A program made the position numbers and the translations under genes. From assembly GCA_045586905.1 (NCBI GenBank), contig JAZNBF010000014.1:15834-79833 (forward strand): a stretch of 64,000 nt of DNA, written 5' to 3'. Positions 7,347 to 26,064 of this stretch are shown here, one piece after another; position 1 is the stretch's first letter; the number at the start of each line of letters is the position of its first letter. Source of the stretch: Clostridia bacterium. Lineage in GTDB: Bacteria; Bacillota; Clostridia; UMGS1810. The notes beneath the pieces were generated by a model. That model was given only the letters and a program-made list of their open reading frames with translations, searched no databases and was not told the origin of the DNA.

Positions 7347-7925
7347 TTATCTGTTTTTTGTGAGTTCTTCATATAATCTTTGGGCAGCAAGATGCGCACG
7401 CGAAATGGCAAACTCGTCGGAGCGTGCATCTTTCTGGGCACATACGCCCATGTGGCCTGCACCACCTGTCGATGACGGACCTACGATTGTCATCCCGTCT
7501 ACAAGCATGCAGTCGTGAATGGCATCAACGGTTTTTTCCTGGCCACCGTATTTGGAAGCACCACAGGAAATTGCAAGACCAAGCTTGCCGAGAAGTGCGC
7601 TGTTTGCCCTCAGGTCACGTGTCTTATCGAAAATGCATTTGAGCTGTGCACTCATTGTGCCGAAATATACAGGGCTTGCAAAAATTATTGCATCGGCATT
7701 TTTCATTGCATCAAAAAGAGAGGTGAGCTTTTTGCCATAGCATATCTTTGCACATGGCGAGGTGCAGGATATGCAAAAAGGATGAGCGCAGTCGGAAACT
7801 GCCTCATGTGCACTGAAAACCTCTGTCTCACAGCCTTTTTCCCTGAGGTCGTTCAAAACAGTGTTTATAAGGAAGGCACAGTTGCCGTCTTTGTTGTGAC
7901 TGCCGTTTACAGCAATTATTTTCAT
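7347..7925 (-). CDS. Flavodoxin-like / NADPH-dependent FMN reductase family protein (iron-sulfur flavoprotein-like)
   Basis: 192 aa. N-terminus MKIIAVNGSHNKDGN is typical of the FMN_red / flavodoxin-like fold, with a Cys-rich insert (CAHPFCISCTSPCAKIC). Confidence 0.7.
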   Translation of the reverse strand: MKIIAVNGSHNKDGNCAFLINTVLNDLREKGCETEVFSAHEAVSDCAHPFCISCTSPCAKICYGKKLTSLFDAMKNADAIIFASPVYFGTMSAQLKCIFDKTRDLRANSALLGKLGLAISCGASKYGGQEKTVDAIHDCMLVDGMTIVGPSSTGGAGHMGVCAQKDARSDEFAISRAHLAAQRLYEELTKNR

Positions 7926-7986
7926 TATATGTACCCTCTTTCAATATTCTTTTTAAATTTATTAAAATTCTACTTAATATATACTA

Positions 7987-8026
7987 CAAAAAAAAGGGAA
8001 TTCCTTTTTTACAAAAGGAATTCCCC
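7987..8026 (-). terminator. Rho-independent terminator after the 3' half of the split gene
   Basis: A 9-bp GC-containing stem (GGGAATTCC 7996-8004 / GGAATTCCC 8017-8025) is followed on the minus strand by T8. There is also a T-run on the plus side, so it is bidirectional. Confidence 0.8.
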
Positions 8027-8031
8027 GTTTT

Positions 8032-8415
8032 TTATCTGCAACCGCAGTCGCCTATTGTGGTTTCAAGACTATCGAAGTGACATTTTTCGGGTGGGAAAAA
8101 TTCATCAACCGGGAAGCTTAATCTGTCGAAAAGCTCACAGGGGTTGTTGTCGATTGACTGAATGCAATCACCCTGAGGGATACAGAAATCGATAACAGGG
8201 ATGCAAAGCTCTACCTTGCGGGTGAGACGGACAATGGTGAAAAGACCGATTGTGACATATACCTTTTTGCCATCGGTTGTATCGACCAAAATGTCGTCAA
8301 ACACACACGAGATGTCTTCGGGAACAGATGACACATCCATTTCACCGCAACAGCAGCATGAGTTATCAGTTGCGTCTACAACTCTTGTTGCAAGACAGAT
8401 GGGGTCTACAACTTC
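8032..8415 (-). CDS. 3' half of a split Cys-rich gene (no start codon of its own at the junction)
   Basis: The track ORF 8032..8340 (102 aa) is open for a further 35 codons upstream. Host-derived reading from the crossover core is EVVDPICLATRVVDATDNSCCCCGE-MDVSS...DCGCR*. It continues in frame from the 5' half at 17333 once 8414-17322 is removed. Confidence 0.75.
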   Translation of the reverse strand, partial: EVVDPICLATRVVDATDNSCCCCGEMDVSSVPEDISCVFDDILVDTTDGKKVYVTIGLFTIVRLTRKVELCIPVIDFCIPQGDCIQSIDNNPCELFDRLSFPVDEFFPPEKCHFDSLETTIGDCGCR

Positions 8416-8427
8416 TGTTTGTGACAG
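8402..8427. repeat. Left junction (attL-like) of the intervening element
   Basis: GGGTCTACAACT-TC-TGTTTGTGACAG. The 10-nt run TCTGTTTGTG (8414-8423) is identical to 17323-17332. The right arm matches the right-junction dyad at 10/12 positions. Confidence 0.7.
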
Positions 8428-9266
8428 CTTTTTTCGCGTTGCTTTTCAAGCGTGAGTTGAGCTTTATCGAAGGTTCTTTTTGATATTATGGCAAGCTGGG
8501 GCAAGTGATGGACATAGTTTTCCTCAATGGGCAAAACCCTTCTTGTGCTTTCCATAAAATCGACCGTCTCGCTTTTGTTGTTGACGAGAATACCACAGTA
8601 TATGGGGTTTGACAAAATCCGTCTGATAGTTTTGGCATTCCATTGTTTGCCAAACTTTGTAGGTGTATTTTTTTCGTTAAGATGGGCGGCAATTTTCCGA
8701 AGTCCCATGTCGGATTTTGTGTAGAGGGAAAAAATCTTTTTTACAACTTTGCTCTCGACTTTATTCACACAAAGTGAGTATGTACCTGTTTTATCGTAAC
8801 CATATATGAGCGGCGGCGTTCTTCCCTTGCCTGCCGAAACCTTTTTGCCGAAAATTATTCTTTTTGATAAGTTGTAGGACTCTTCCTGCGCAATGGCAGC
8901 AAACATTGTGAGGGCAAATTCGGACTCTCCTAAAGTGTCCATGTTGCACGAGAGAAATCTCACATCGATGCCTCTTGATTTGAGTGTTCGTATGCCTACA
9001 AGAAAATCTACCGTGTTGCGCGCAAAGCGGCTGATGTCCTTAACAACGAGCATATCGAAAGTATGATTTTTGCTTTCATCAAGCATTGAAGAAAAAGCCT
9101 CACGGTTTTTAAGAGCTTTGCCGCTGATGCCTCGGTCGGCATAGATTTTAACAAGGTTATAATTGTATTTTTTTGCATATTCTTCGAAGAAAGCTTTTTG
9201 ATTTTCGAGTGATGACAATTGCTTTTCGCTTTTGGTTGACACTCTGCAATAAGCAGCGATATTCAT
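8406..9266 (-). CDS. Serine recombinase (resolvase catalytic domain plus 'recombinase' domain; no zinc-ribbon/coiled-coil)
   Basis: 286 aa with nucleophile motif AAYCRVSTKS and E-helix AIAQEESYNLSKRI. Recombinase-domain signatures are WNAKTIRRILSNPIYCG and LAIISKRTFDKAQ. The ORF reads across the crossover core and stops 5 nt beyond it. Confidence 0.9.
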   Translation of the reverse strand: MNIAAYCRVSTKSEKQLSSLENQKAFFEEYAKKYNYNLVKIYADRGISGKALKNREAFSSMLDESKNHTFDMLVVKDISRFARNTVDFLVGIRTLKSRGIDVRFLSCNMDTLGESEFALTMFAAIAQEESYNLSKRIIFGKKVSAGKGRTPPLIYGYDKTGTYSLCVNKVESKVVKKIFSLYTKSDMGLRKIAAHLNEKNTPTKFGKQWNAKTIRRILSNPIYCGILVNNKSETVDFMESTRRVLPIEENYVHHLPQLAIISKRTFDKAQLTLEKQREKSCHKQKL

Positions 9267-9303
9267 AAAAAAACCTCCTTGCTACAAGTGTATGCAAAGG
9301 AGG
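9267..9303 (-). terminator. Intrinsic terminator after the 397-aa SLH gene; its 3' arm is the recombinase Shine-Dalgarno
   Basis: Minus strand reads CCTCCTTTGC-atacacttgta-GCAAGGAGG-TTTTTTT-ATG. This is a 9-bp stem with one bulge. The U-run serves as the spacer between the SD and the recombinase ATG (9266). Confidence 0.65.
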
Positions 9304-9321
9304 TTTTAAGTTTCTTAAATG

Positions 9322-10515
9322 TTAAGGAATAAGAGTTGTGGGATCTTTTATACCAAACATTATCTCCAAAAGGAAATCTACATCATCGAGTGACATTTCA
9401 GGGTGTGTGGCAAGCTTTGAATAGAAAGCAGACTGAGCTTCTTCATCAAGAGCTTCGTATTTGGATTTTGCAAGTTGAACATCGGAACGGTATGTGTTTT
9501 TTACATAATTTTCAACATAAATCCACTCGCCATCAGCTGCATCGGCAAGAGTTTTCTGAATGGTACCAGCAACAACTTCGCCATCTACCTCGCCGCCTCT
9601 TACGATGTTTAATATGTTACGCTCTACATCACTTAATCTCAAAGTGGAACTGGTGATGACGCCAAGAAGCTTGTTGAGTTTTTCGACAACCAAAGCCTGT
9701 TTTGCGGAGTCAAACTGAGGAGTATCGGGCTCGTCAGGAGTGCTCGGTGTACTCGGAGTGCTTGGTGTACTCGGAGTGCTCGGTGTACTTGGTGTGCTTG
9801 AACCGCCACCGGAGCTTCCGCCACCGGAGTTTCCGCCACCGGAGTTTCCGCCACCACTGAAGCTGCCACCACCAATACTAGCACCTCCGCCAAAGCTTAC
9901 GCCGGGAGTTGTTGTGCTATCCTGAACAAAGTTGGCAAGGAGCAATGAAAGCTCACCTCTTGTCATGTTCTCTGTTGCTCTGAATGTGTTGTTGGCTTCC
10001 AAAGATATCAATCGGTTTGATATTACAGTTTTAACATCATTTTCTGCCCATGCAGAAACGGGATCGGATATTGCTATGTTGCCACCAAGATTGTAAAGTC
10101 CATTTACTCTTACAACTATCGCGCAAGCCTGTTCACGGGTAACCGGAGAATCGCCACGGAAGGTGCCATCTTCAAAGCCATTGATATAGCCGGCTTTTTT
10201 AGCAATTTTCACATGGCTGTAATACCACTTGTCTTCTGTCACATCGGAAAATACTAGAGTGTCCGGCACGGTGTATTTTTTGATGTTATTTATCATCTTA
10301 CAAAGTTCGGCTCTGGAAACACTTCGCTGAGGGGCAAAGGTGCCATCACCATTGCCATTTATTATGCCTGCATTTGCAAGCTTATATATTGCTTTGCCTA
10401 CCGTGGTTGAAGCATCAACATCGGTGAAGGAGATTTTTGTGTCGGCCAAAACGGGAACAATACTGTATGTGGCAATTAATATTACTGCCAAAAAAACTGA
10501 TAGAAACTTTTTCAT
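9322..10515 (-). CDS. Secreted S-layer-homology (3x SLH) protein with Gly/Ser and PST linker
   Basis: 397 aa with a signal peptide (MKKFLSVFLAVILIATYSIVPVLA) and three SLH modules (FTDVD..., FSDVTEDKWYY..., ISDPVSAWAEN...). These are followed by a GGGNSGGGSS run and a (PST)6 run, then a C-terminal domain of unknown function. Confidence 0.85.
   Translation of the reverse strand: MKKFLSVFLAVILIATYSIVPVLADTKISFTDVDASTTVGKAIYKLANAGIINGNGDGTFAPQRSVSRAELCKMINNIKKYTVPDTLVFSDVTEDKWYYSHVKIAKKAGYINGFEDGTFRGDSPVTREQACAIVVRVNGLYNLGGNIAISDPVSAWAENDVKTVISNRLISLEANNTFRATENMTRGELSLLLANFVQDSTTTPGVSFGGGASIGGGSFSGGGNSGGGNSGGGSSGGGSSTPSTPSTPSTPSTPSTPSTPDEPDTPQFDSAKQALVVEKLNKLLGVITSSTLRLSDVERNILNIVRGGEVDGEVVAGTIQKTLADAADGEWIYVENYVKNTYRSDVQLAKSKYEALDEEAQSAFYSKLATHPEMSLDDVDFLLEIMFGIKDPTTLIP
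9737..9799 (-). repeat. Tandem 9-nt (18-nt) coding repeat encoding (PST)n
   Basis: Seven units: ggagtgctc ggtgtactc ggagtgctt ggtgtactc ggagtgctc ggtgtactt ggtgtgctt. They lie inside the 397-aa SLH gene. Confidence 0.9.
9803..9850 (-). repeat. Tandem 15-nt coding repeat encoding the GGNSG-type linker
   Basis: ccgccaccggagctt / ccgccaccggagttt / ccgccaccggagttt, directly adjacent to the PST repeat. Confidence 0.85.
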
Positions 10516-10540
10516 TTTGTCACCTTTTCTTTCTTTGATA

Positions 10541-10572
10541 ATAATAGGCAGAAATTACTTTCTGCCTATTAT
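10541..10572 (-). terminator. 14-bp hairpin downstream of the giant SLH gene (attenuator/terminator candidate)
   Basis: ATAATAGGCAGAAA-ttac-TTTCTGCCTATTAT is a perfect stem, but it has only a weak U-tract on the minus strand. Confidence 0.45.
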
Positions 10573-10583
10573 TTCGCAGTGTC

Positions 10584-13500
10584 TTATTCAACTATTGCAC
10601 GGCTTACAACCACTTTGTTTGAGCCGGCTATAATTTCATATGTGTTACCGTCATCCTTTCTGGAAACCGTAATCTCTTTGCCCTGAACTGTCAAGGTGTA
10701 GGTGTCGGTATTTTTGCGTTCTACTCTTATTGTTTTACCTTTGATGGTTACCTCGTAGGTGTCTTGATCAATCTGAGTAATTCTGTCGATGCTGTCTAAG
10801 CCATCAAACTTGTTGACAATAAGATTGTAGCCTCTGCCAATGAGATTGAATGCTTCGTCGGTTGTGATGTTGATTGATTCGAATGCTTTGTTTACGCCTT
10901 TGCGAAGTTTTGCATAGTCATCGGAAGCATAATCCCTGTTGAATGAGCTTTGTTCGTACCAATCGAGGATTTTGTCTACTTTATCACCGAATTTTTCTTT
11001 AATCTTTTTCTCAACTGCTTTTACAATGTTATTGTCAAGCTTGTCGGGGAGAGCGCCTGTGTCGGCATAGTCACCAACCATATCGGCAATGATATTTGCA
11101 TATTTCACAAAGAGGTCTTCGTAGTCGAGAACAAGCTGGTCAAACTCGTCTTTCGAAAGCTCTTCCGTGTACCATTTCATTGCATCATCGCCAACAAGTG
11201 CTATTGCAACGAGGAGATTGTAGTAATCGGTGTAATCTTTGATTGCATAGCCTGTGCCAACACCTGTGTTTGTGTCGAAAACACATTCAACACTTGTGAG
11301 ACGGACAAGCTCTCTGAGGTACTGATTTTCTCTGTAATAATAGTTGCGTGTAGCTTTTTCGTCCAGAAGTTCTGCAAAACGATCACGGAATACTGCATAT
11401 ACATCGTCCACAAGGTTGATGATGAAATTGAGACCTGTGGAAATGTAAGCTGTTTGACCGTTTGCATTGGCCTGTTTGCCCTCTTCGATGTCTAAGAGGA
11501 GCTCATTGTAGGCTCTTGTGTAGATAGCTTCAAGCTTTGCTCTCGGATAGATTTTGAAAACTTGACTTGGAACCTTGGCAATGAGATCGTCGAAGGTGTA
11601 GTCTTTAACCTGCATTTCAAATGCTGTAAGAATGAAGCTGTTGTCTGATGCGATTTCAAATTCATCATCGCTTACAAGCTGATGTATCATAGTGTCGAGT
11701 ACATCACGATATCTTGACTCAATGATTTCATCGATGATATCGTCGAGCTGATCTGTTTCTCTGAGATGCTCTATTGCATGATCAACATATTCTTCAAAAT
11801 CGGAAAGGTCGCCTTTGTCAACAAAATAGTCAACAGCTTCGTTAATTATTGCTTCACGCTTGTCGGCATCATTATCGAAGAGATAGAGAACAAGCTCAAT
11901 GATAAACTGTTTGGTGTTTAAACTGTCAATGTTTGCAGGACAATAGCCAAATTCATCTTCAACTATTTCTTCGATATTGTCGTTGATGTAGTCTTCGATA
12001 TGACCGTCGATTTCTTCCTCTGTCATACCAAAAGCAAGAAGTTCAGCTTTTATCTCATCATATGTCATAGGATCAAGAACTGCTTTTGCATACTGAACAA
12101 TAAAGTCCATAGCATTTTCTTCGATTGGATCCGTAAACACAATGCCTGAATATTCTGCGATATATTCATTACGCTTTGTGGTGCTTGTTCTGATTTCATC
12201 TTCTACATCAGCTAAAATATGATGTTCAATTTCAGCAAAGAGGCTGTTCATGTCGGTGTAGCCAAGTTCGTGGGCAAGGTTATCATCGATTGTAACAGAT
12301 GAGTTTACCTTGTGCTTTACAACATCAATTACAAGGTCGAATGCATTTTGAGGAACAGCTGCATAGTTTGCATAGGTTATGCCTGCATGCTCTGCAATCT
12401 GTTCTACAAGGAATGTGTCGGCCGGATCTGCAACTCTTTCTTTGGCATCTTCCAGTGCATATTCTTTTGCTTTTCCGAGAATATCGATAGCTGTGTAGCC
12501 GAGTTTTTCCAAAGCATATTCGGAATCATTTTCAAAATAGATTTCTACAAAGCGTGCCATAAGCTCTCTCGGAGTAGATGGCAGGTCATCTGCTTTTTCG
12601 AATTCATCAAATGATGCTGCTTTTACATATGCATCAACCTTTGCCGCATCATCTAAGGATGCACTGAAGTTTGCAAAGAAGTTATCTATTTCACTTTGTG
12701 TCATAGAGGAGAAATCTTCGCCTGTCATAAGCTCAAGTTCTTCATAGTCGCCGCTTGTCTGTGCATCTGATACAACCTTTGTGAGAATCATTTTGAAGAG
12801 GTCGAGAGATGTGGCGGTGTCGGGAACTGATGACTGACCGATAAATTCCTGCAAAACATCGCCATATGCTGATTTTGACGTGTCTCTGATGTCTGTTGCT
12901 ATGATATCACCAAGCTCGTCGACAGCGGCATCGAGCATTGCTGCGCTGTCTACATAGCCTGCAAAATCAGCGAGTTCTTCATATGACATTGTTTGGATAG
13001 AATTGTCGATAAAATCGATGATTATAGAAACGGTTGAAGCAGGTTTAACTTCTGCGTAGGTATAGCCTGAGAAGTCGGTTGTGGAAACAACATGATTGAA
13101 GAAATCGGGATTGTCAAGATCGTCGACGAGAACTGTCAGGATATCATCCTTGCGGGCGTCAAACAGAGCCTGCAAATCGGCATATCCAAGTTCTACTGCG
13201 ATTTCATCAGGTGTCATTGCTTCAAAATGAGACTTAACAACATCGACAATCAAATCGGTTGTAGAAAGTCCGGATGATGGCTTCTGTATATCTTCGAACG
13301 GTGTGCCACGGAAATTATAGTGAACAACATCATCGAAGAAACCATCAGAAGACACCAGATTGTCGGTAATGTATTTTACAAGACGCTTTTTAACATTTGC
13401 TTTGAATGTGGGGTCCGTGTTAATGAGGTCTTTGGTCCATTTGATGATGGTGGGTGTAGCTGCGGAGGTAAGATCTTCATCTGTTACCGTTACATTGTAG

Positions 13501-16301
13501 CCTATAAAATCTGCAAATGCTGTCTTGATAAGGTCAGGATCGTCAAGACTTGTTTCGCATATATCTCTTATCATATCGAGCGCAGTGGCATCGGAGGAGA
13601 TTGCTCTGTCTATTGCTTCTTTAAAGAGGCTCTTGATTTCGGAAACATCGTCAGGATTTGAAGAATTTGCCATTCTTTCAAAATATTCGAAGATGGCGTC
13701 TTTGAGTTCATCATTGTCGCTGAGTGATTCTTTTGCGTTGTCTACAATGTATTCTTCAAGCTCTTCCTTGCCGATGATATCGGCAAATCTTACGAAAACT
13801 TCAAAAGGAAGAATGTTGTTGTTTGCATCTATTATGCCTTTTTCGCGAAGCTTTGAAAGTGCCTTGTTTCCACCTTTCTCTATCTGCTCCTGGAGACTTT
13901 GCTGAAGAGGTGTGGTGCTTGCGGAGAATGAATCCCAAATGAAGTTTTTGAAGGTATCCATTGCTCTTGTTCCTGTAACGGTTCTGTTTCCGGAACCGTC
14001 AACAGTGACAACAGTAGGCTCGTAATATCTTGCAAAGGTAAATCCTGTGCCGATCTTATCGACATAGGCATATATGCTGAGCTGAGGAGATCTTTCTTCA
14101 ACTGTGAGTACGCCCGAAGAATCTACGATTGTGTCAGTAACCAAAGTGGTTGAAGTGAATTTTTCCCATTTGTTTGTTTCGGGATTGTAGTACCAGCCAA
14201 ATTTCACTTTGTGTGTATATTCATTACCTACATATACGGGTGACACACTTGCAGTCTCCCTGTAACCTTCCTGCTCATAGAGTAAAAGGCCATCAAACAC
14301 ACTCTGGGGAACAGATGTGTTTTCGGGGACTATGTGTTCTCCCACCTGACTTCCCAAAGACATGAAGCGTACTGTGTAAAGTGGTGTTGTTTGCCATACA
14401 GCAGTAAATACCCAACCACCCTGTGGATCATAATCTATGATGGTGACATCCTCGCCACCGTTATAAAGATGGCCATTGCAGCTCCATCCAAGGAATACAT
14501 CGTATCCGTTTTCCACCTTGTCGGACTCCGGAAGAGTTATGGTTGAACCATAGGGAGTGGTAGCTACCGGAGGAGTATATCCGAGGATAAATGAACCACC
14601 ATTTGAGAAGTTATATGAAATGTTTATGGAATTTCTTGTATAGTACAATTTGAGAACAAGAGCATTGCCAGCCAAAACAGTGCCGCTTGATTTGCTCAAA
14701 TCAGGATCGGGATTGTAGGTGAAACCTGTAAAATAAGGAGGAACAACGCTGACGGAATCACCTATGTTTTTACCACTTATTGTTGCAGAAGATGTACATA
14801 CATAATCTGAAGCATCAGATGGCACACCACCTATTCTGAGCTGATAATACTCTATTGTGTAGTCAGCGGGGATAGCGGTTTTGTTGTAATAAAGCTTGAG
14901 AACGAGTGTTCCGTTTTTATTTACAACACCTGTTTTTACCTGAGATGCGTGAGAACCGTTATAGTAATAGCCATCTATATCTGTGGTAAGAGGTGCTGCT
15001 TCAACGGTTGCATTGAGAACATCTTTTTTAGTTTGTGTTTTTGAAGAGTCTCTAAGATACTCCACAGGATTTGCACCGTTTTGGAAATAGTGTTCAATCT
15101 TGTATGTATACACTGCAACGAAATCATTTGATGAGTTTACGGTTATTGTGTCACCGGGATTTTTTATTGCACCATATCTGTCACGCCATCCTGCAAAGCC
15201 GGGATAGTTTGTCATATTGGGAGTGGGAAGAGTATAGGTGTTGCCTTTTTTTACTTTATCTGACTTAGACACACCTGCACCCGAAACATTTATAAGATAA
15301 GTTACAGGAGATGATGATGAAGAACTGCCGCCTGTGGAAATGCTGTAATTATCGCCTTTGTATGTTGCCTGTGTAATTTCCTTTATATTTTTAAAAACAT
15401 CTTCCGATTTGTAGTTGTCAAAATGAACTACACCGTTGACGTCTTTAACTACGATGTTTTCGCCCACTGTTGTATTTACAAGTCTTACTGAATCTTCACC
15501 GCCTCGGCAAAGAATGCGGCCTTTTACAGTAACATTTTCAAATACAACGGAGCCAAAGCCCACACCATCACCTATGATGAGGTCGCCCTCTATTGTTACA
15601 TCGCGGAGTATTACACCTGATGCACGGATAATGACTGAGTCAAGACCTGCTTTGGTGTATGTCCCTGAGCTGACATAGTAGGTTTTGATGATGTTGTGCA
15701 TAAGCTGAGCAAATTCCTCACGGGTTATGTATGAGTGAGGGTTGAGATTGGCATTTTCATCACCGTTTATGTAGCCCTTTTGAGAAAGAATTGCAGCATA
15801 AGGCTTTGCCCAGGAGGAGATTGCTCCCGAGTCGGGATGAGCCGAAAGAGCAGAATAGTCGGAAGTTTCTAAAACAAGTGCTCTGGCAATAACTGCAAAA
15901 ACTTCTTCTCTTGTGATGGGATCGTTTGGTCGCATTGTGCCTGTGCCATCACCCTGGAAAGTCTGCATGTTTACAGCTTTGGCAATTTCAGTATAGAACC
16001 AGTCTTTTGGTGATACATCACTAAAAGATGAGATATCGGCCATTTTCGTGGCACCAAATGCACGGTTGATAACCGTTGCCAGTTCGGCACGTGTAAGATT
16101 GCCGGTTGGTTCGATAGTGGTGGTGGTTCGGCCTCTAAGAAGCCCGTTTGCCACAGCCGCTCTCATAGCTTCAGCTGACCATCCGGTAGGGAAATCGGTA
16201 AAGCCTGAAGTGTTGGCTGCAAACGCTTGCAAACACGTTGGCAAAACCATGGTAAAGCTCAGAATAATTGCAAGAGCTTTTTTTATAAAACTTTTTTTCA
16301 T
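10584..16301 (-). CDS. Giant (1905 aa) SLH-anchored surface protein
   Basis: It has a signal peptide and three N-terminal SLH modules, then a beta-helix-like segment. A Listeria/Bacteroides-type repeat follows (GFAGWRDRYGAIKNPGDTITV), then two MucBP-like beta modules (YKIEHYFQN..., YTIEYYQLR...). After that comes about 1200 aa of acidic helical repeats and three short C-terminal beta repeats. Confidence 0.9.
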   Translation of the reverse strand: MKKSFIKKALAIILSFTMVLPTCLQAFAANTSGFTDFPTGWSAEAMRAAVANGLLRGRTTTTIEPTGNLTRAELATVINRAFGATKMADISSFSDVSPKDWFYTEIAKAVNMQTFQGDGTGTMRPNDPITREEVFAVIARALVLETSDYSALSAHPDSGAISSWAKPYAAILSQKGYINGDENANLNPHSYITREEFAQLMHNIIKTYYVSSGTYTKAGLDSVIIRASGVILRDVTIEGDLIIGDGVGFGSVVFENVTVKGRILCRGGEDSVRLVNTTVGENIVVKDVNGVVHFDNYKSEDVFKNIKEITQATYKGDNYSISTGGSSSSSSPVTYLINVSGAGVSKSDKVKKGNTYTLPTPNMTNYPGFAGWRDRYGAIKNPGDTITVNSSNDFVAVYTYKIEHYFQNGANPVEYLRDSSKTQTKKDVLNATVEAAPLTTDIDGYYYNGSHASQVKTGVVNKNGTLVLKLYYNKTAIPADYTIEYYQLRIGGVPSDASDYVCTSSATISGKNIGDSVSVVPPYFTGFTYNPDPDLSKSSGTVLAGNALVLKLYYTRNSINISYNFSNGGSFILGYTPPVATTPYGSTITLPESDKVENGYDVFLGWSCNGHLYNGGEDVTIIDYDPQGGWVFTAVWQTTPLYTVRFMSLGSQVGEHIVPENTSVPQSVFDGLLLYEQEGYRETASVSPVYVGNEYTHKVKFGWYYNPETNKWEKFTSTTLVTDTIVDSSGVLTVEERSPQLSIYAYVDKIGTGFTFARYYEPTVVTVDGSGNRTVTGTRAMDTFKNFIWDSFSASTTPLQQSLQEQIEKGGNKALSKLREKGIIDANNNILPFEVFVRFADIIGKEELEEYIVDNAKESLSDNDELKDAIFEYFERMANSSNPDDVSEIKSLFKEAIDRAISSDATALDMIRDICETSLDDPDLIKTAFADFIGYNVTVTDEDLTSAATPTIIKWTKDLINTDPTFKANVKKRLVKYITDNLVSSDGFFDDVVHYNFRGTPFEDIQKPSSGLSTTDLIVDVVKSHFEAMTPDEIAVELGYADLQALFDARKDDILTVLVDDLDNPDFFNHVVSTTDFSGYTYAEVKPASTVSIIIDFIDNSIQTMSYEELADFAGYVDSAAMLDAAVDELGDIIATDIRDTSKSAYGDVLQEFIGQSSVPDTATSLDLFKMILTKVVSDAQTSGDYEELELMTGEDFSSMTQSEIDNFFANFSASLDDAAKVDAYVKAASFDEFEKADDLPSTPRELMARFVEIYFENDSEYALEKLGYTAIDILGKAKEYALEDAKERVADPADTFLVEQIAEHAGITYANYAAVPQNAFDLVIDVVKHKVNSSVTIDDNLAHELGYTDMNSLFAEIEHHILADVEDEIRTSTTKRNEYIAEYSGIVFTDPIEENAMDFIVQYAKAVLDPMTYDEIKAELLAFGMTEEEIDGHIEDYINDNIEEIVEDEFGYCPANIDSLNTKQFIIELVLYLFDNDADKREAIINEAVDYFVDKGDLSDFEEYVDHAIEHLRETDQLDDIIDEIIESRYRDVLDTMIHQLVSDDEFEIASDNSFILTAFEMQVKDYTFDDLIAKVPSQVFKIYPRAKLEAIYTRAYNELLLDIEEGKQANANGQTAYISTGLNFIINLVDDVYAVFRDRFAELLDEKATRNYYYRENQYLRELVRLTSVECVFDTNTGVGTGYAIKDYTDYYNLLVAIALVGDDAMKWYTEELSKDEFDQLVLDYEDLFVKYANIIADMVGDYADTGALPDKLDNNIVKAVEKKIKEKFGDKVDKILDWYEQSSFNRDYASDDYAKLRKGVNKAFESINITTDEAFNLIGRGYNLIVNKFDGLDSIDRITQIDQDTYEVTIKGKTIRVERKNTDTYTLTVQGKEITVSRKDDGNTYEIIAGSNKVVVSRAIVE

Positions 16302-16328
16302 TGTACTTCCTCCCAGTGCTATATTTGA

Positions 16329-17159
16329 TTAGGTTATTAAACTTAGGTAGTGTGCTTTTTTGAGACTTTTTTCGTTTTGATACGAGGAGCGGATCTGATC
16401 GACAAGTCCCGTGCTTTCTCCTGCATCTTTCAAAAGACCTGTCAGTTTGGAAAGTAATTTGTCAATCTGATCATCACAGTCTCTCTCTAAAGCTGCTGCT
16501 TTTGGATATACCTCGGCAAGCAAAGACTTTTTCTTTGCGGACCTTTGTTCTTTTGTCATATTACGCCACAATGCCTTATACTCTGAAAAGGCCTGATTAT
16601 ATATGACATCAAGCTGACCGACAAAGTTGGCTTTTATAACATAAACCTGAGCTATGCATGCCGATATTTCACTGCTGTTGTCAGGTTTGGAGCTATCTTC
16701 TTCTGAATCGCCTTTGTTTGTTGTTTCTTCGGATTGTGTCGCGTTCTGGTTTGACGCAGCTTCCTGCTTTAGTTGGTTTGCGGTTTCGGCATCTACCTTT
16801 TCACCGCTTTCGACAATTGTTATATTTTTGTCTTCACCAAGCTCAAGCTCTGTACCGAACATTTTTTCAATTGTTGTTTGTTCGGTTATAAGGCTCACGA
16901 GTTCGCTATCGTCGATCACACCTTTTTTGTGAAGTTCTTCTTCAAGCGGTTTTGACGGTCTGACGTTGTATTTCGAATTTTCCTCAAGATAGGTTCCTAC
17001 CTCTTCGGAATTTTCACTCATGAGAGCATCGATGTCGGAGTCGGAATATTTAACCCAGTAATACAGTGCCTTTATGTTTCCAAACTGCCACCAGACAAGG
17101 CAGGCACAAAGGGAAAATATAACGATAATTGATATTAAAATTTTATGTGTTTTTTTCAT
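16329..17159 (-). CDS. Membrane-anchored protein of unknown function (first gene of the cargo operon)
   Basis: MKKTHKILISIIVIFSLCACLVWW is an N-terminal anchor, followed by an acidic low-complexity middle and a helical C-terminus. The track start at 17180 would add MCGDCLE; I prefer ATG 17159. Confidence 0.65.
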   Translation of the reverse strand: MKKTHKILISIIVIFSLCACLVWWQFGNIKALYYWVKYSDSDIDALMSENSEEVGTYLEENSKYNVRPSKPLEEELHKKGVIDDSELVSLITEQTTIEKMFGTELELGEDKNITIVESGEKVDAETANQLKQEAASNQNATQSEETTNKGDSEEDSSKPDNSSEISACIAQVYVIKANFVGQLDVIYNQAFSEYKALWRNMTKEQRSAKKKSLLAEVYPKAAALERDCDDQIDKLLSKLTGLLKDAGESTGLVDQIRSSYQNEKSLKKAHYLSLIT

Positions 17160-17233
17160 TTCTAAGCAATCACCACACATATGTTTTTATACTTATGGGC
17201 ACAATAACCCATAATTAAAACTATACATATTAC

Positions 17234-17262
17234 ATTCTATACTTTTATTCATCTTTTGTCAA
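17234..17262 (-). promoter_or_regulatory. SigmaA-type promoter for the element's cargo operon
   Basis: Minus strand reads TTGACA (17262-17257), a 17-nt spacer, then TAGAAT (17239-17234). It lies about 75 nt upstream of ATG 17159, just inside the right end of the element. Confidence 0.5.
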
Positions 17263-17777
17263 GTGAAACCGAAGATTTTAGCATGCCAAAAAAAGACAAA
17301 TATTGCACAGGTGGCACAAACATCTGTTTGTGCCACAGGAAGATTGTTTTTCTGCCAGAGCTGAATGTCGGCTGCTTCTTCTTTATATTTGGAACTGAAG
17401 GTTTTTGCATTGCCTTCTGAACCGAAAAGAATAACCTTTTTGTCATAGCTTGCAATACCCTCTACCTGAGTAGGTCTGCCAAGACCTGTGAAGACATCAA
17501 GTGTTATGCGAATGAAAATTTTGAGATCGACGCTATAATAGCCTCTGTTGAATGCCACAGGCTCAACATCGGAATAGATCCATATGATTTCTGCTTTCCG
17601 GCATCTTACGCTTGTTGACCTGTCTAAAAGGCTCTGCCCACACTCAGTGAGATATACTCTTAAGTTTTCTATGCATTCTTTATCACGGCACGAGTCATAT
17701 ACTTTTTTGGTCTGTATACATACTTCATTACCACAGTTAGCGTTGTTTGAGTTACAGGAATTTACCCTATCGCTCAT
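17259..17777 (-). CDS. 5' half of the split Cys-rich gene (151 native codons plus 21 read-through codons from the element)
   Basis: MSDRVNSCNSNNANCGNEVCIQTKKVYDSCRDKECIENLRVY...LPVAQT, then the junk tail DVCATCAIFVFFWHAKIFGFT*. A strong SD (GGAGG) lies 8 nt upstream of ATG 17777. Confidence 0.75.
   Translation of the reverse strand: MSDRVNSCNSNNANCGNEVCIQTKKVYDSCRDKECIENLRVYLTECGQSLLDRSTSVRCRKAEIIWIYSDVEPVAFNRGYYSVDLKIFIRITLDVFTGLGRPTQVEGIASYDKKVILFGSEGNAKTFSSKYKEEAADIQLWQKNNLPVAQTDVCATCAIFVFFWHAKIFGFT
17311..17336. repeat. Right junction (attR-like): perfect 12-2-12 dyad
   Basis: GTGGCACAAACA-TC-TGTTTGTGCCAC is a perfect 26-bp palindrome around a central TC. It contains the 10-nt repeat TCTGTTTGTG (17323-17332). 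Confidence 0.75.
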
Positions 17778-17830
17778 AATATAACCTCCGATTCAGATTT
17801 AAATTTAGGCTTTTTTGCCTAATTTATTAG

Positions 17831-17858
17831 TATAATATGAGCGAAACCGTTATTTTGT
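17831..17858 (-). promoter_or_regulatory. SigmaK-like (mother-cell type) promoter candidate upstream of the split gene
   Basis: Minus strand reads cACa, a 17-nt spacer, then CATATTATA. This fits the Bacillus sigmaK pattern AC-N16/17-CATAnnnTA. It sits about 55 nt upstream of ATG 17777. Confidence 0.35.
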
Positions 17859-17906
17859 GATAACGAAGTACTGATTTTGGAAACATGAAAAACCGGAGGC
17901 TTAAAG

Positions 17907-18380
17907 ATGAAAAAATCAAAAAGGGTGTCCGAATCTTACACCGAGCATGTTCAGATTCTGTCGCAGGCAAGTCTTAACGGATACAAAAGACTTTTTGGTG
18001 GAAAGCTTATGGAGTGGATTGACATTGTGGCAGCAGTAGTGGCAAGAAGGCACTCGGGGTGTAATGTGACAACGGTATCGGTGGATAGTCTCATTTTCAA
18101 AAAACCCGCCTATGCCAATGACACCATAACCATCAACGGATTTATTACCTATGCAGGAAAAACATCGATGGAAATTTGCGTTAAAACTTATCTTGAAAAT
18201 CTTGACGGAAGCCGGGAAGAAATCAACACTGCTTTTCTGGTTATGGTGGCAATTGACGAAAACGAAAAACCTGTGGAGGTGCCCACTCTTATAGCAGAAA
18301 GTGAAACCGACAAAGCAAATTTTGAAGCGGCAAAAAGAAGAAGAGAACTCAGAAAGCTAAGAGAAAATGAAAATTTTTAA
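17907..18380 (+). CDS. Acyl-CoA thioesterase (hotdog fold, YciA/BFIT-like)
   Basis: 157 aa. The layout (...NGYKRLFGGKLMEWIDIVAAVVARRHSG..VTTVSVDSLIFKKPA...) is typical of acyl-CoA hydrolases. Confidence 0.8.
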   Translation: MKKSKRVSESYTEHVQILSQASLNGYKRLFGGKLMEWIDIVAAVVARRHSGCNVTTVSVDSLIFKKPAYANDTITINGFITYAGKTSMEICVKTYLENLDGSREEINTAFLVMVAIDENEKPVEVPTLIAESETDKANFEAAKRRRELRKLRENENF

Positions 18381-19387
18381 AAATCTAAAAACATTGCAAC
18401 AACAAGCTCTGCCATGGATTTTGAAAGATTTGTTTTATTCTTTATAGCCTGTTTTGCCCTTTCTGTGTCGATGTAGTCACTGCCCGATATTCTGCCAAAG
18501 CTGAAAAGCCCGTATCCGTAGCGGTCGTCCCGGCCAAAGCCGCTGAGGTCTTCTGTGTAGATGTTTAACAGAAGACGGATTTCATCGGGAGTGAGGAAAC
18601 GGTTGTAACGCATTCGTCCCTTTGATTGCAAAATGGCAACAGCACCTGTTATTATGGGAGTGGCCATGGATGTGCCGCTGAGGGTTGCATAGGTGTTGTT
18701 TTTATAGGTGGAGTAGATGTCGATGCCTGCGGCAGATATCTCAGCGCTGGGGCCCCGTGAACTGAAGCTTGCTATGTGCTTGCCGCAGTCAACTGCCGAA
18801 ACAGCAATGGTCTCATTAAAGCTTGCAGGATAACCCATGGCGCCCTCTCCCTTTTCGCCTTCGTTGCCTGCCGCACAAATCATGGTTATGCCATTTTTGC
18901 GTGCAAGCTTCACAAGAGCGGCATAACGCCCCGATGAAAAAGATGACGAAAACGACATGTTTATAACGCTGACTCTGCACTTTATGAGCCACAGTATACT
19001 TTTTTCTATCGCCTGATAGTCGGTTTTTCCATGGGTGTCGAAAGCTTTGCAGATGTACAGTTCTGACAAGGGAGCAACTCCAACCACGCCGATGCCATTT
19101 TTCTCGGCAGCTACGATTCCTGCCACATGGGTGCCATGTCCGTTGGTGTCTTCTATATCATAAATTCCGGTGCCCGAAAAAGAAATACCGTCTTTAATGC
19201 GCTCTTTAAGATCGGGATGGGTGGTGTCGATGCCTGTGTCTATTATTCCCACTCTTATGCCCTCTCCCATTGTCTCCTTCCATTCGAGAGGAGCGCCGAC
19301 CATTCTGACTCCATAGTCGACAACCTCCTCACCAGATCCTTTGTCTGAACTTATGAAGGTGTATTCACTTATTTTAAAATTTTTCAT
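18377..19387 (-). CDS. Subtilisin-family (S8) serine protease, apparently intracellular
   Basis: 336 aa. Catalytic triad motifs are GIIDTGID, HGTHVAG and GTSMATP. There is no signal peptide. Confidence 0.9.
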   Translation of the reverse strand: MKNFKISEYTFISSDKGSGEEVVDYGVRMVGAPLEWKETMGEGIRVGIIDTGIDTTHPDLKERIKDGISFSGTGIYDIEDTNGHGTHVAGIVAAEKNGIGVVGVAPLSELYICKAFDTHGKTDYQAIEKSILWLIKCRVSVINMSFSSSFSSGRYAALVKLARKNGITMICAAGNEGEKGEGAMGYPASFNETIAVSAVDCGKHIASFSSRGPSAEISAAGIDIYSTYKNNTYATLSGTSMATPIITGAVAILQSKGRMRYNRFLTPDEIRLLLNIYTEDLSGFGRDDRYGYGLFSFGRISGSDYIDTERAKQAIKNKTNLSKSMAELVVAMFLDF

Positions 19388-19643
19388 ATCACATCTCTCC
19401 AGAGTTTATTTGCTATTATATGAAAAACATTTCATGTTTGACATTGGAGATGAAATTATAAGCTTCATAAAGCAAAACGACTATTAAATAATTAGATAAA
19501 TATTACAAAGACCAAACATAATATTTTGTGACTTTTTTCATATATACAAAAGACATATTTTGTAATATAATTATAACGTATGTGGATTGTTAGGTCTACT
19601 TATCACGATTACTTAAAACACAAAATTACAGGAGATGCTGAAA

Positions 19644-20489
19644 ATGGACACAACTTTATTGGTAATGGCTGCCGGAATGGGTTCCCGTTTTGGCGGGCTG
19701 AAGCAAATTGCTCCCATGGGCAAAAATGGTGAAATCATACTTGACTTTTCAGTATATGATGCAATCAAAGCAGGCTTCAACAAGGCGGTTTTCATCATAA
19801 AAAAAGAAATAGAACACGACTTCAGAGAAGCAGCAGGAAAAAGAATTGAAAAGATGATTGACACAGAATATGTTTTCCAGCAGATTGATTCATCTCTTCC
19901 AAACGGTTTTTCAGTGCCCGACTGCAGAAAGAAACCCTGGGGAACAGGTCACGCTGTTCTTTGCGCAAAAGACGCTGTAAAAACCCCATTTGCAGCAATC
20001 AATGCAGATGACTACTATGGCAGAAATTCATTAAAGCTTGTCCACTCTGCTCTTGTTGGCGGAAGTGAAATCTGTATGGCAGGTTTCAGACTTGGTAACA
20101 CCTTAACCGAAAACGGTACCGTGAGCAGAGGCATTTGTGAAATAGAAAACGGACTTTTGAAATCGGTAACCGAGCACACAGCTCTCGACAAAAACTCACC
20201 CTTCCCCATGGACACCGTTGTTTCCATGAACATGTGGGGATTTAAGCCAACAATATTCGATGAGCTTGAAACAAGATTTGAAGATTTCCTCAAAAATCTT
20301 TCAAACCCTGAAAAAGAAGAGTTTTTCCTTCCTTTTGTTGTGGACGACCTTATTAAAACAAGAAATCAGAAAGTTGACGCCTACATATCTGATGACAAGT
20401 GGTATGGCGTAACATATAAAGAAGATACCCCCTCGGTAAGAGAGGCACTTCAAAAACTTATGGAAGAAGGTTATTACGATGGGATCTAA
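19644..20489 (+). CDS. Sugar-1-phosphate nucleotidyltransferase
   Basis: N-terminal signature LLVMAAGMGSRFGGLKQ. I prefer ATG 19644, 9 nt after the AGGAG SD, over 19635. It overlaps the downstream kinase gene by 11 nt. Confidence 0.8.
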   Translation: MDTTLLVMAAGMGSRFGGLKQIAPMGKNGEIILDFSVYDAIKAGFNKAVFIIKKEIEHDFREAAGKRIEKMIDTEYVFQQIDSSLPNGFSVPDCRKKPWGTGHAVLCAKDAVKTPFAAINADDYYGRNSLKLVHSALVGGSEICMAGFRLGNTLTENGTVSRGICEIENGLLKSVTEHTALDKNSPFPMDTVVSMNMWGFKPTIFDELETRFEDFLKNLSNPEKEEFFLPFVVDDLIKTRNQKVDAYISDDKWYGVTYKEDTPSVREALQKLMEEGYYDGI

Positions 20490-21561
20490 CATAGCCCCAA
20501 TAAACGAAATAATGCATGCTTTTTCAATTAAGTTTGATGTCGACCCTTACGGTGACGGTCATATCAATGACACATATCTTGCAGATGCAAAACCCCGCTA
20601 CATACTTCAGAGAATCAACACAGCTGTTTTCAAAAATCCCCAGAAACTTATGGAGAACATCTGGAATGTTACCGAGCATCTCAGAGGAATAATAGAAAAA
20701 AACGGAGGCAATCCAAACAGAGAAACTCTCACTGTTATAAAAACAAGAGATGACAAGCTGTTTTATGAGGCAAGTGACGGAAAATGTTACAGAGTGTATA
20801 TTTTCATTGACAACACTCTTTCTCTAAACCTCCCCGAAAACCCCACTCAGTTTGAAAACTCTGCAAAGGCTTTCGGTCGTTTTCAAAATATGCTTGCAAG
20901 TTTTGATGCTTCTTCTCTTTATGAGACTATACCCGATTTTCATAACACACCAAAGAGAACCGAAAACCTTAAAGCTGCCTACGAAAAAAATGCTGCAGGC
21001 AGAAAAGATGAGGTTGAGGAGATTTACAACGAATATCTCAAATTTGCAGAGGACTGTGCTGTTATAACAAACGATCTTGAATCGGGTGCTATTCCCAAAC
21101 GAGTTACCCACAATGACACAAAGCTCAACAACGTGTTGTTTGATCCTGTGACACAGGAAGGCGTTTGCGTTATCGACCTCGATACCGTTATGCCGGGTTC
21201 TCTCCTCTTTGACTATGGCGATTCACTCCGTTTTGGTGCTTCTACTGCTGTTGAAGATGAGGCCGACCTTGACAAGGTATGGTTTGACCTTGAATATTTT
21301 GAAAGCTACACAAGAGGTTTCCTCTCCGAGCTCAAAGAAACAATCACAAAGCGCGAGGTTGAGCTTATGCCACTCGCTGCACTCACCATGACATATGAAT
21401 GCGGCATACGCTTCCTCACTGACTATCTCGACGGTGACACATACTTCAAAATTCACTATCCTGATCAGAACCTTGTGAGAGCTAAAAACCATCTCAAGCT
21501 TTGTCAGGACATTTTCTCAAAGCTTGGCGACATGAAAAAAATAGTTGAAAAATACATGTAA
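20479..21561 (+). CDS. nahK: N-acetylhexosamine 1-kinase-like (NahK/APH-fold) anomeric sugar kinase
   Basis: 360 aa and collinear with Bifidobacterium NahK as I remember it (PYGDGHINDTYL, ILQRINT..F, RVTHNDTKLNNVLFD, VIDLDTVMPGSLLFDYGDSLRFGAST, YPDQNLVRAK). Confidence 0.8.
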   Translation: MGSNIAPINEIMHAFSIKFDVDPYGDGHINDTYLADAKPRYILQRINTAVFKNPQKLMENIWNVTEHLRGIIEKNGGNPNRETLTVIKTRDDKLFYEASDGKCYRVYIFIDNTLSLNLPENPTQFENSAKAFGRFQNMLASFDASSLYETIPDFHNTPKRTENLKAAYEKNAAGRKDEVEEIYNEYLKFAEDCAVITNDLESGAIPKRVTHNDTKLNNVLFDPVTQEGVCVIDLDTVMPGSLLFDYGDSLRFGASTAVEDEADLDKVWFDLEYFESYTRGFLSELKETITKREVELMPLAALTMTYECGIRFLTDYLDGDTYFKIHYPDQNLVRAKNHLKLCQDIFSKLGDMKKIVEKYM

Positions 21562-21601
21562 TCTGACATAAGTTTAATTTGTCTGAAACCATTTTTCGAC
21601 A

Positions 21602-21631
21602 GTATACAAATCAAAGCCTTCGGGAAAGATT
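21602..21631 (+). promoter_or_regulatory. Forespore (sigmaF/sigmaG)-type promoter candidate for sigG
   Basis: GTATA (21602-21606), a 16-nt spacer, then GGAAAGATT. This resembles GYATA-N15/16-GGnnAnAHT. It overlaps a 12-bp hairpin (GAAAGATTTTAT/ATAAAATCTTTC). Confidence 0.3.
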
Positions 21632-21668
21632 TTATTGCAGACATAAAATCTTTCTCGGAGGTTTTTTT

Positions 21669-22439
21669 ATGATAAACAAGGTAGAAATTTGCGGTGTGAA
21701 CACGTCTAAACTTCCGGTGCTTTCAAACGACGAAAAGCTCAGACTTTTTGACAGGATAAAAAAAGGTGACAAGGAAGCAAGAGAAGAATTTATAAGCGGT
21801 AATTTAAGGCTTGTGCTTTCTGTTATACAAAAATTTTCAGGACGTGGCGAAAATGCCGACGACCTTTTTCAGGTGGGTTGCATCGGGCTTATAAAATCTG
21901 TGGATAATTTTGATCTTTCACAAAATGTAAAGTTTTCCACTTATGCAGTACCGATGATTATTGGTGAGATAAGAAGATATCTGCGTGACAATAACTCCAT
22001 AAGAGTGAGCAGATCGCTGAGAGATACAGCCTACAAGGCACTGGGAGCAAAAGAAAGACTTATGGCCAGAAACGAGACAGAGCCTACCATTGACGAAATT
22101 GCAAAAGAGCTTGGCATGGAAAAGGAAGACATTGTGTTTGCTCTTGATGCAATACAGGAGCCTGTGTCGCTTTTTGAACCTGTGTATAATGACGGAAATG
22201 ATGCAATTTTTGTGATGGATCAGCTGAGCGACGAAAAAAGTCTTGACGAGAACTGGCTTGAAGAAATATCACTTAAAGAAGCAATGAAAAAACTCGGCGA
22301 CCGTGAAAAGCACATTATCAATCTCAGATTTTACAAAGGCAGAACTCAGATGGAAGTGGCAAAGGAGCTCGGAATAAGTCAGGCACAGGTTTCGAGGCTT
22401 GAAAAAACAGCACTAAAATCGATGAAGAAAAACATGTGA
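21669..22439 (+). CDS. sigG: Sporulation sigma factor SigG
   Basis: The N-terminus MINKVEICGVNTSKLPVLSNDE... and the segment NLRLVLSVIQKFSGRGENADDLFQVGCIGLIKSVDNFDLSQNVKFSTYAVPMIIGEIRRYLRDNNSIRVSRSL are near-identical to B. subtilis SigG. GGAGG lies 8 nt upstream. The track ORF start (21579) is an upstream extension. Confidence 0.93.
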   Translation: MINKVEICGVNTSKLPVLSNDEKLRLFDRIKKGDKEAREEFISGNLRLVLSVIQKFSGRGENADDLFQVGCIGLIKSVDNFDLSQNVKFSTYAVPMIIGEIRRYLRDNNSIRVSRSLRDTAYKALGAKERLMARNETEPTIDEIAKELGMEKEDIVFALDAIQEPVSLFEPVYNDGNDAIFVMDQLSDEKSLDENWLEEISLKEAMKKLGDREKHIINLRFYKGRTQMEVAKELGISQAQVSRLEKTALKSMKKNM

Positions 22440-22513
22440 TGACAAAATAAACCAAAACAAATCATGAATTTCAATTAAAAAAAACACATATGCACAATAT
22501 TGCCCAGTGGTTG

Positions 22514-22543
22514 TTGACTAAAACCCCCTTTGCATGTTATACT
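22514..22543 (+). promoter_or_regulatory. SigmaA-type promoter for the purF-like gene
   Basis: TTGACT (22514-22519), an 18-nt spacer, then TATACT (22538-22543), about 40 nt upstream of ATG 22582. Confidence 0.5.
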
Positions 22544-22581
22544 CTTAATATATTACAATACTAACAACGGAGGTATATATA

Positions 22582-24006: not shown

Positions 24007-24025
24007 GTGGTTGATACTCAACCAC

Positions 24026-24110
24026 AATGAAATGCCTTTGGCATGAATTGAAATCAAAGATTTCATGAATTGAGCCTTGTGGCTCATGAATTGCACCTTA
24101 GGTGCATTCA
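24026..24110 (+). repeat. Phased array of four short hairpins joined by a conserved CATGAATTG linker
   Basis: Stems are ATGCC/GGCAT (24032-44), TGAAATC/GATTTCA (24049-65), TGAGCC/GGCTCA (24071-86) and TGCACC/GGTGCA (24092-106). CATGAATTG occurs at 24042, 24064 and 24085, giving a 21-22 nt period. An 8-bp hairpin at 24007-24025 precedes the array. Confidence 0.8.
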
Positions 24111-24141
24111 AAAACAATTTGTTTTATGTACCATGTCCAAA

Positions 24142-24174
24142 AGACAGAAACAATTTTGTTTCTGTCTTTTTTTT
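24142..24174 (+). terminator. Rho-independent terminator (purF-like gene / hairpin array)
   Basis: AGACAGAAAC-aatttt-GTTTCTGTCT followed by T8. Confidence 0.8.
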
Positions 24175-24189
24175 GTCGAAATGTTTTTG

Positions 24190-24218
24190 TTGCATTTTCC
24201 TGATTAAAATGCTATACT
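24190..24218 (+). promoter_or_regulatory. SigmaA-type promoter of the sRNA candidate
   Basis: TTGCAT (24190-24195), a 17-nt spacer, then TATACT (24213-24218). Confidence 0.5.
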
Positions 24219-24224
24219 TAAATA

Positions 24225-24688: not shown

Positions 24689-24710
24689 AGTTACCTGATA
24701 AAGCATCAGA

Positions 24711-24785: not shown

Positions 24786-24804
24786 GACTAAAGAGGTTAA
24801 AAAG

Positions 24805-26044: not shown

Positions 26045-26064
26045 GATTCTTTGTCTCTACTTTA

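Follow-up and report, generated by a model that had tools for sequence, protein, structure and literature searches.

A probable serine-recombinase intervening element carrying a host cell-envelope operon in a split gene of a gut Clostridia bacterium

In the genome of a Clostridia bacterium of the UMGS1810 lineage (GenBank assembly GCA_045586905.1, contig JAZNBF010000014.1, positions 15,834 to 79,833 of the forward strand), a gene for a cysteine-rich protein, here called X, is present as two pieces separated by about 8.9 kb of DNA that contains a serine recombinase gene and three further genes, two of which encode proteins with S-layer homology (SLH) repeats. We refer to this stretch of 64,000 nucleotides as the window and use its coordinates throughout. 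The arrangement raises the question of what the intervening DNA is and why genes for surface proteins are found within it; an earlier reading of the sequence (the original prediction) took the insert to be a new kind of passenger, maintained by selection for keeping surface-protein genes in the spore line. We consider it likely that the segment at 8416–17324 is an old, vertically inherited serine-recombinase intervening element in a probable mother-cell gene, with a single host envelope operon as its payload.

Joining position 17325 to 8415 produces an unbroken frame of 278 codons, and the join falls exactly at a GA core within a dyad. Read on the minus strand, the order is the 5′ half of X, open reading frames (ORFs) of 277, 1905 and 397 codons, the gene for a 286-residue recombinase, and the 3′ half of X, such that four co-directional genes sit between the gene halves. 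The ORFs and threefold Pfam SLH matches agree with the description given in the original prediction, in which the insert consisted of a recombinase and three co-directional genes. The first cargo ORF spans 17180–16329 (283 aa), or 17162–16329 (277 aa) if read from a conserved MKK start. The gaps between genes in the element are 27, 68, 55 and about 140 nt, leaving no space for a further conventional gene, a directionality factor included, and no small-gene candidate for a recombination directionality factor was seen in them. The GC content of the element is similar to that of the surrounding DNA. Its genes and junctions are as follows.

17325 to 17777, minus strand: 5′ half of the split cysteine-rich gene X (joined to 8415–8032, an open frame of 278 aa)
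17311 to 17336, unstranded: right junction (attL in gene orientation), dyad GGCACAAACA-GA-TGTTTGTGCC, crossover at GA 17324/17323
16329 to 17162, minus strand: membrane-anchored helical protein of 277 aa, first cargo gene, its start set by alignment of 12 homologues
10584 to 16301, minus strand: secreted, SLH-anchored giant protein of 1905 aa, with a signal peptide and three SLH repeats at about residues 32–205
9322 to 10515, minus strand: secreted SLH protein of 397 aa, with three SLH repeats at residues 27–194, a Gly/PST linker and a C-terminal domain of 130 aa
8406 to 9266, minus strand: serine recombinase of 286 aa with Resolvase and Recombinase domains (Pfam), its stop codon 9 nt past the crossover
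8402 to 8427, unstranded: left junction (attR in gene orientation), core CACAAACA-GA, crossover at 8415/8414
8032 to 8415, minus strand: 3′ half of X, conserved in frame from the first codon past the crossover

The two junctions have the sequence CACAAACAGA in common. The circular junction attP reconstructs as GTCACAAACA-GA-TGTTTGTGCCAC, an almost perfect dyad centred on GA. Every relative in which X is split has the junction GGCACAAAnnGA/TGTTTGTGnCAC, and intact genes have GGCACAAAnnGA/AGTTGTAGACCC at this place. The element thus has the features of a recombinase-mediated intervening element, with a recombinase gene at one end and attachment (att) sites that share a short common core within an inverted repeat.

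The split gene itself is widespread in intact form. The joined frame matches more than 2500 intact proteins of about 275–285 aa, the best with 74% identity over the full length, and it is 74–81% identical over its full length to the intact genes of relatives; a single reading frame is interrupted in frame here, and its joined halves correspond to the protein that relatives encode without interruption. Some homologues of X carry the Pfam label PF27077. Upstream of the 5′ half there is a candidate promoter:

17831 to 17858, minus strand: sigmaK-type promoter of X, AC-N17-CATATTATA, read in the sequence

A motif of the form tCACA...CATAttAT(A/G) lies upstream of X at nearly all of about 30 loci, split or intact, in several families, and it fits the sigmaK promoter pattern established for Bacillus. 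SpoIVA is encoded in the window's genome and in 36 of the 41 genomes searched. By analogy with sigK, spsM and gerE (PMC5025042, PMC4191935, PMC5595907), X would be a late gene of the mother cell whose halves are brought together by excision.

The recombinase contains neither a zinc ribbon nor a coiled coil, and profiles of 540–650 positions match it only to about position 280; it has only two of the canonical domains of a large serine recombinase. Its counterparts in relatives of the genus are 284–292 aa long. It is the only such recombinase in the window's genome at E≤1e-20, and an NCBIfam search matched it to XisF. In two relatives the gene is inverted and longer, encoding 530 aa with a zinc ribbon in genome G017 and 450 aa in G019. 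The G017 locus (L016, G017:C59, 1739–2962 and 3136–4728) has, besides this inverted full-length recombinase, a gene for an AAA/DUF4143 ATPase that is absent from the window's element.

Between the last cargo gene and the recombinase lies a strong hairpin:

9270 to 9307, minus strand: terminator-like hairpin, −18.4 kcal/mol, z −5.0, followed by U7 and AUG

The recombinase's Shine-Dalgarno sequence (GGAGG) makes up the 3′ arm, and the U-tract separates it from the ATG. In relatives, too, the recombinase follows a hairpin of this form, though of another sequence, even where the gene ahead is unrelated and not an SLH gene, and since the hairpin is kept with the recombinase behind differing upstream genes, it belongs to the recombinase module. 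Alignment of these hairpins with MAFFT and RNAalifold was poor and gave a weak consensus; the single folds are strong. A sigmaE or sigmaK promoter within the hairpin loop (CATACACT and similar) was considered and dropped, as the −35 spacing is inconsistent among relatives.

Both SLH proteins of the cargo are recognizable as cell-wall proteins by an N-terminal signal peptide, read in the sequence, followed by three SLH repeats. PF00395 matches three stretches in each (E 6e-28 and 6e-35), and Pfam finds nothing beyond these repeats in either the 1905-aa or the 397-aa protein; a sequence search of the PDB likewise matched both only at the SLH domains (Sap of Bacillus anthracis) and at low-complexity linkers. 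Relatives of the giant protein range from about 950 to 3669 aa through gain and loss of repeat domains. The 277-aa protein was modeled with AlphaFold2 (pLDDT 78) as a helical bundle with an N-terminal membrane helix at residues 2–38 and long C-terminal helices, and the model had no match in the PDB at E≤0.001. In relatives, its gene is always found ahead of the one for the giant SLH protein. The window's genome contains about 30 further SLH loci, so that SLH anchoring is part of the normal envelope biology of this organism. Word-based homologue searches returned only 13 matches for the membrane protein and four for the C-terminal part of the giant, and the wider distribution of the cargo was therefore taken from six-frame genome searches. 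The cargo is a set of ordinary, fast-evolving cell-envelope genes of this bacterial family.

Within the gene for the 397-aa protein, tandem coding repeats of 9 nt and 15 nt at 9737–9880 encode the (PST)n and GGNSG-type linker, and both repeat units preserve the reading frame.

The operon has a promoter-like sequence and a leader of its own:

17234 to 17262, minus strand: sigma-70-type promoter of the cargo operon, TTGACA-17-TAGAAT, consensus score 11/12
17193 to 17214, minus strand: 5′ leader hairpin of the operon, AUGGGUUAUUGUGCCCAU; −10.3 kcal/mol, z −2.0, weak

The promoter named in the original prediction holds up as the best of 32 sigma-70-type matches in 10 kb, where shuffled sequences are expected to give 22.8 ± 5.2. 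The score on its own is weak evidence, and conservation is the stronger argument: cTTGAC(A/T), a spacer of about 17 nt and TAnnnT occupy the equivalent position in the majority of related operon copies in five genera, including copies that lie outside the element. Because it is conserved at the same place inside and outside the element, the promoter belongs to the operon, and its consensus suggests that the operon would be expressed in growing cells. It does lie inside the right end of the element as first proposed, although that end is at 17324/17323 and not at 17262, the promoter being about 60 nt inward. A leader motif, TATGTATA..TAATTATGGGTT..CCC (17193–17232, minus strand), is kept in the in-element copies of the genus; it has no Rfam match and is absent from the out-of-element copy in G006. 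An Rfam scan of 7800–18000 returned nothing close to any gathering score.

To describe the distribution of the element we searched 40 related genomes in six frames, 24 of them being other genomes of the family. These are fragmented assemblies, and several of the elements were pieced together from two contigs. X is split at the same codon (residues ~148–155) in 15 of the 24, 11 of these in the same genus; it is intact in seven, and two gave no clear call. The same element, operon order and promoter occur in at least nine species of the genus and in four other genera. Wherever contigs allow, the order is 5′ half, promoter, membrane-protein gene, giant SLH gene, small SLH gene, recombinase and 3′ half; it was seen in full in G003 (8.8 kb), G008 (12 kb), G004, G017 and G019, pieced together from separate contigs in G022 and G024, and seen on the contig of the N-terminal side only in G002, G005, G009, G011 and G013. 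Trees of X, the recombinase and the membrane protein share the sub-clades (G000, G003, G004, G008), (G002, G013), (G005, G009) and (G017, G019, G022), and the pairwise identities of the N-terminal half of X and the recombinase are correlated (r=0.84, 66 pairs). Element and cargo have thus evolved in step with their hosts, which indicates that the element is old and vertically inherited. At least six changes between the split and intact states are needed on the X gene tree.

A near relative, locus L048 (JGI 3300029305), has the same layout with a giant protein of 2211 aa as opposed to 1905 aa. Compared with 9806–26433 of the window, its flanking host genes are 84.5% identical at the DNA level, the 3′ part of the giant gene and the 397-aa gene, together the 3′ two-thirds of the cargo, 92.3%, and the membrane-protein gene and 5′ part of the giant gene 78–81%; the middle of the giant gene is unalignable. 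This mosaic suggests allele exchange by recombination, or domain turnover, inside the cargo.

The operon and the element also occur apart. In G015, X is split and the junctions and a 71%-identical recombinase are present, and the element's cargo genes encode an OPT transporter, a PqqD-like protein and a peptidyl-prolyl isomerase; the operon of membrane protein and SLH protein adjoins glutamine synthetase on another contig. The same att sites can thus carry different cargo, a possibility that the original prediction had raised. In G006, X is intact and is followed by a lactonase gene and then, 1 kb downstream of X, by the genes for the membrane protein and the giant SLH protein, also with a sigma-70-type promoter; no recombinase is nearby. 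The occurrence of the genes near X without recombinase or repeats had been named beforehand as a sign that they are ancestral and that the element's boundaries lie elsewhere. Such an occurrence is seen in G006; the boundaries in the window nevertheless stay where they are, being set by the split reading frame. G016 and G021 likewise have an intact X, with the operon at another locus. In G001 the site is empty, and this 95%-complete genome contains neither operon nor recombinase anywhere, so the operon can go together with the element.

Other elements hold more genes. In G005, G007 and G009, genes for an esterase, a peptidase, a hydrolase, a transporter, an alcohol dehydrogenase and SbcCD lie between the SLH genes and the recombinase, and no phage genes were found in these segments. 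The G005 contig extends 30 kb past the 5′ half of X through regulators and metabolic genes, and the MatE gene at its end agrees in length (456 aa) and family with one on the recombinase-side contig of G009. From these contig runs and the shared MatE gene, the halves of X would be at least 35–45 kb apart in both. In the tree of the membrane-protein gene, a genus clade with 99% support mixes copies from inside and outside the element, and the gene follows taxonomy either way. On this comparison the operon is a long-standing, lineage-wide host operon whose position relative to the switch has changed several times.

Upstream of the promoter of the out-of-element operon in G006 (locus L033, G006:C18, 3380–3440, minus strand) there is a sequence, TGCACAATTTGTACATATTGTCA, that resembles the attL half-site GGCACAAATTGATG...; its GCACAATTTG may be a relic of a former junction or may be due to chance, and is suggestive only.

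We propose that transcription of the operon would start at the sigma-70-type promoter that it carries near the right end of the element, and that the hairpin at the other end would bury the ribosome binding site of the recombinase, such that operon transcripts would neither enter nor translate the recombinase gene. Late in sporulation, in the terminal mother cell, the recombinase would join the att sites; X would thereby be restored and the operon set free as part of a circle, with the integrated copy staying in the spore. The cargo would then be host genes in a segment that is dispensable for the mother cell. Their benefit to growing cells would maintain them, and would incidentally put a penalty on loss of the element from the germ line. 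The identity of the cargo looks incidental to the switch and not selected for it, and the element resembles a domesticated piece of the chromosome more than the remains of a virus.

Several points weigh against this interpretation. We infer excision and its timing from the layout of the locus, and the link of X to sporulation, which we regard as probable, draws on promoter consensus and analogy. The joined X protein has no match in Pfam (E≤1), NCBIfam or PHROGs, and an AlphaFold2 model of an intact X homologue (pLDDT 68) has no fold match in the PDB. The recombinase is without the zinc-ribbon and coiled-coil module of characterized excision recombinases, the element has no space for the gene of a directionality factor, and a comparison of the upstream region among relatives did not identify a mother-cell promoter for the recombinase with confidence. 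In G005 and G009 the halves of X are on different contigs, so that the size and even the orientation of the segment are not fixed. Finally, the history of the operon can be read either way, as captured by the element or as carried by it and then left behind.

A different account would make the SLH operon the reason why the element persists: surface genes would gain from being retained in the spore line and removed from the mother cell, and, by extension, vegetative envelope genes would be eliminated from the terminal cell as part of a programme. The operon is within the element in at least 12 species of five genera, with its promoter always just inside attL and co-directional with X, as this account would have it. 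We nevertheless think it unlikely, since the operon lies outside the element in G006, G015, G016 and G021, G015 retains the switch with quite different cargo, and the segment in G005 and G009 has tens of kilobases of unrelated genes. Moreover, the operon and its promoter would be intact on the excised circle, and expression therefore need not stop. The selection for surface genes in the germ line that was originally envisaged is thus not indicated, given that the operon is lineage-wide and occurs outside the element and that related elements carry other genes.

The insertion could also be a fossil, with a dead recombinase and an element that never leaves, X being either broken or divided into two separate proteins and the cargo being bystander genes. 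That the recombinase is short by about half of the canonical length of large serine recombinases, that no directionality factor is present and that the halves of X are on separate contigs in several relatives would all fit such a history. It is an improbable one, however, in view of strong purifying selection on both halves and on the recombinase across about ten species. Among the split genomes the ratios of nonsynonymous to synonymous substitution rates (dN/dS) are 0.05 for the N-terminal half of X, 0.09 for the C-terminal half, 0.12 for the recombinase and 0.24 for the membrane-protein gene, with many pairs saturated at synonymous sites. In addition, 25 codons ahead of any ATG in the 3′ half of X are conserved in frame. 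Low ratios in both halves together with conserved codons before the first ATG would not be expected if the gene were never put back together. Conservation extends to the att dyad and core, and a short recombinase of 272–292 aa is retained by the genus and by two further genera, in either orientation.

The SLH genes might instead be morons, or be derived from tail-fibre or endolysin genes, in what is left of a prophage or integrative element; in favour of this, the majority of intervening elements in the literature are prophage-like (PMC5595907, PMC10747680), both SLH proteins match PHROG families labelled tail protein and endolysin, and the best PHROG match of the recombinase is a phage integrase family, but the former matches are confined to the SLH repeats (about residues 27–205) and align to the C-terminal SLH parts of the phage proteins, no phage genes occur in about 15 related elements, and the cargo gene tree follows the host, which makes this origin highly improbable. 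In the window's element, PHROG and Pfam matches are only to the SLH repeats and the recombinase, with no phage structural, packaging, lysis or replication genes, and searches with Pfam, NCBIfam and PHROGs found no transposase, tyrosine integrase, relaxase or conjugation genes. Capsid, portal, terminase, tail, replication and lysis genes were likewise found in none of the approximately 15 related elements. The statement of the original prediction that capsid, tail, replication, tyrosine-integrase and transposase genes are lacking is therefore correct here and for the related copies examined, and the profile search of the cargo that it called for gave no phage structural or replication homology.

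Several known systems are comparable. The heterocyst elements of Anabaena and Nostoc in nifD, fdxN and hupL, with the recombinases XisA, XisF and XisC, are excised in a terminally differentiated cell, contain non-phage genes and are inherited vertically with patchy loss among relatives; XisF is a serine recombinase. They differ in belonging to another phylum and developmental programme, in that XisF needs XisH and XisI, and in having no surface-protein operon as cargo. Skin in sigK (SpoIVCA, or CD1231 with CD1234) and SPbeta in spsM (SprA/SprB) resemble the element described here in having a gene split in frame and a terminal serine recombinase. Such elements are 14–134 kb in size. They are prophages or their remnants, with recombinases of about 500 aa and directionality factors, whereas the element here is without phage genes and its excision is predicted. 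In both skin and SPbeta, excision reconstitutes a mother-cell gene (PMC5025042, PMC4191935, PMC5499854).

That intervening elements need not be phage-derived was already known from gin, which lies in gerE of Bacillus cereus ATCC 10987 (Abe et al. 2017, PMC5595907), and a non-phage payload does not in itself make the present element the different kind of passenger that it was first taken for. Both are non-phage elements in a late mother-cell gene, putatively so in the case of X, with a serine recombinase and a short core in an inverted repeat. However, gin contains 31 genes, including restriction-modification genes, recJ and three recombinases, has a low GC content and needs GirX; it is identical between strains, pointing to recent transfer, and is limited to a few strains (PMC5595907). 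The element here has one host-type envelope operon, a GC content like that of its surroundings, a recombinase without a zinc ribbon and no space for an accessory gene; across genera, its divergence parallels that of its hosts. The SLH proteins are similar to S-layer proteins such as Sap of B. anthracis (PDB 3pyw/6bt4), with a signal peptide followed by three SLH repeats that match those of Sap, but their parts beyond the SLH repeats have no detectable relative among solved structures or curated families. A search of a literature library found no publication that combines intervening elements with SLH cargo. What differs here is the minimal host envelope content of one operon and the deep vertical inheritance with patchy loss; a third difference is that the content appears, from the genomes compared, to be freely replaced or expanded in sister species while the att sites and recombinase stay.

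A broader possibility, which we offer tentatively and regard as doubtful at present, is that the segment between the att sites is, in this family of gut Clostridia, a germ-line-only chromosome domain that is deleted from the mother cell at each sporulation by a minimal recombinase without a directionality factor, and that the usefulness of its content during growth locks the switch in place. The content would be an envelope operon here, and in relatives tens of kilobases that include transporters, regulators and SbcCD. Intervening elements are usually read as prophage relics tolerated by the host, but here there is no trace of phage genes, and a conserved switch, consisting of att sites and a minimal recombinase, with free content points to long-term domestication. 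The cargo itself is ordinary, and the interest lies in what the comparison says about domestication. Were excision confirmed, the locus would be a compact natural example in bacteria of a difference in DNA between germ line and soma, and would provide a pair of recombinase and att sites that may work without accessory factors.

Other recombinases in these genomes are associated with different loci. Serine recombinases of 510–511 aa, 46–49% identical to that of the element, are present in L046 (G006:C23:12001–31000) at 8266–9801 and in L047 (G019:C15) at 8360–9892, beside conserved ORFs of 159 and 422 aa in two genera. The 511-aa recombinase of G006 adjoins the orthologue of a subtilase gene found in the window at 18377–19387. 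We considered whether it marks the missing end of the G006 operon and rejected this, as it belongs to another element beside the subtilase gene; the 510–511-aa recombinases probably represent another site-specific element.

The gene spoIVA, intact in the window's genome, is split near residues 400–403 in at least six relatives. Its halves are at 45458–46654 and 78944–79225 of G009:C23 and at 177926–179122 and 155785–156066 of G026:C10, and the gene is also split in G003, G006, G015 and G002, with the halves on separate contigs. Full-length serine recombinases (555–582 aa) lie between or beside the spoIVA halves, and recombinases associated with spoIVA are found at G009:C23:64314–65171, G026:C10:156819–157673 and G006:C19:53954–54814. 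This looks like a second family of intervening elements, located in spoIVA.

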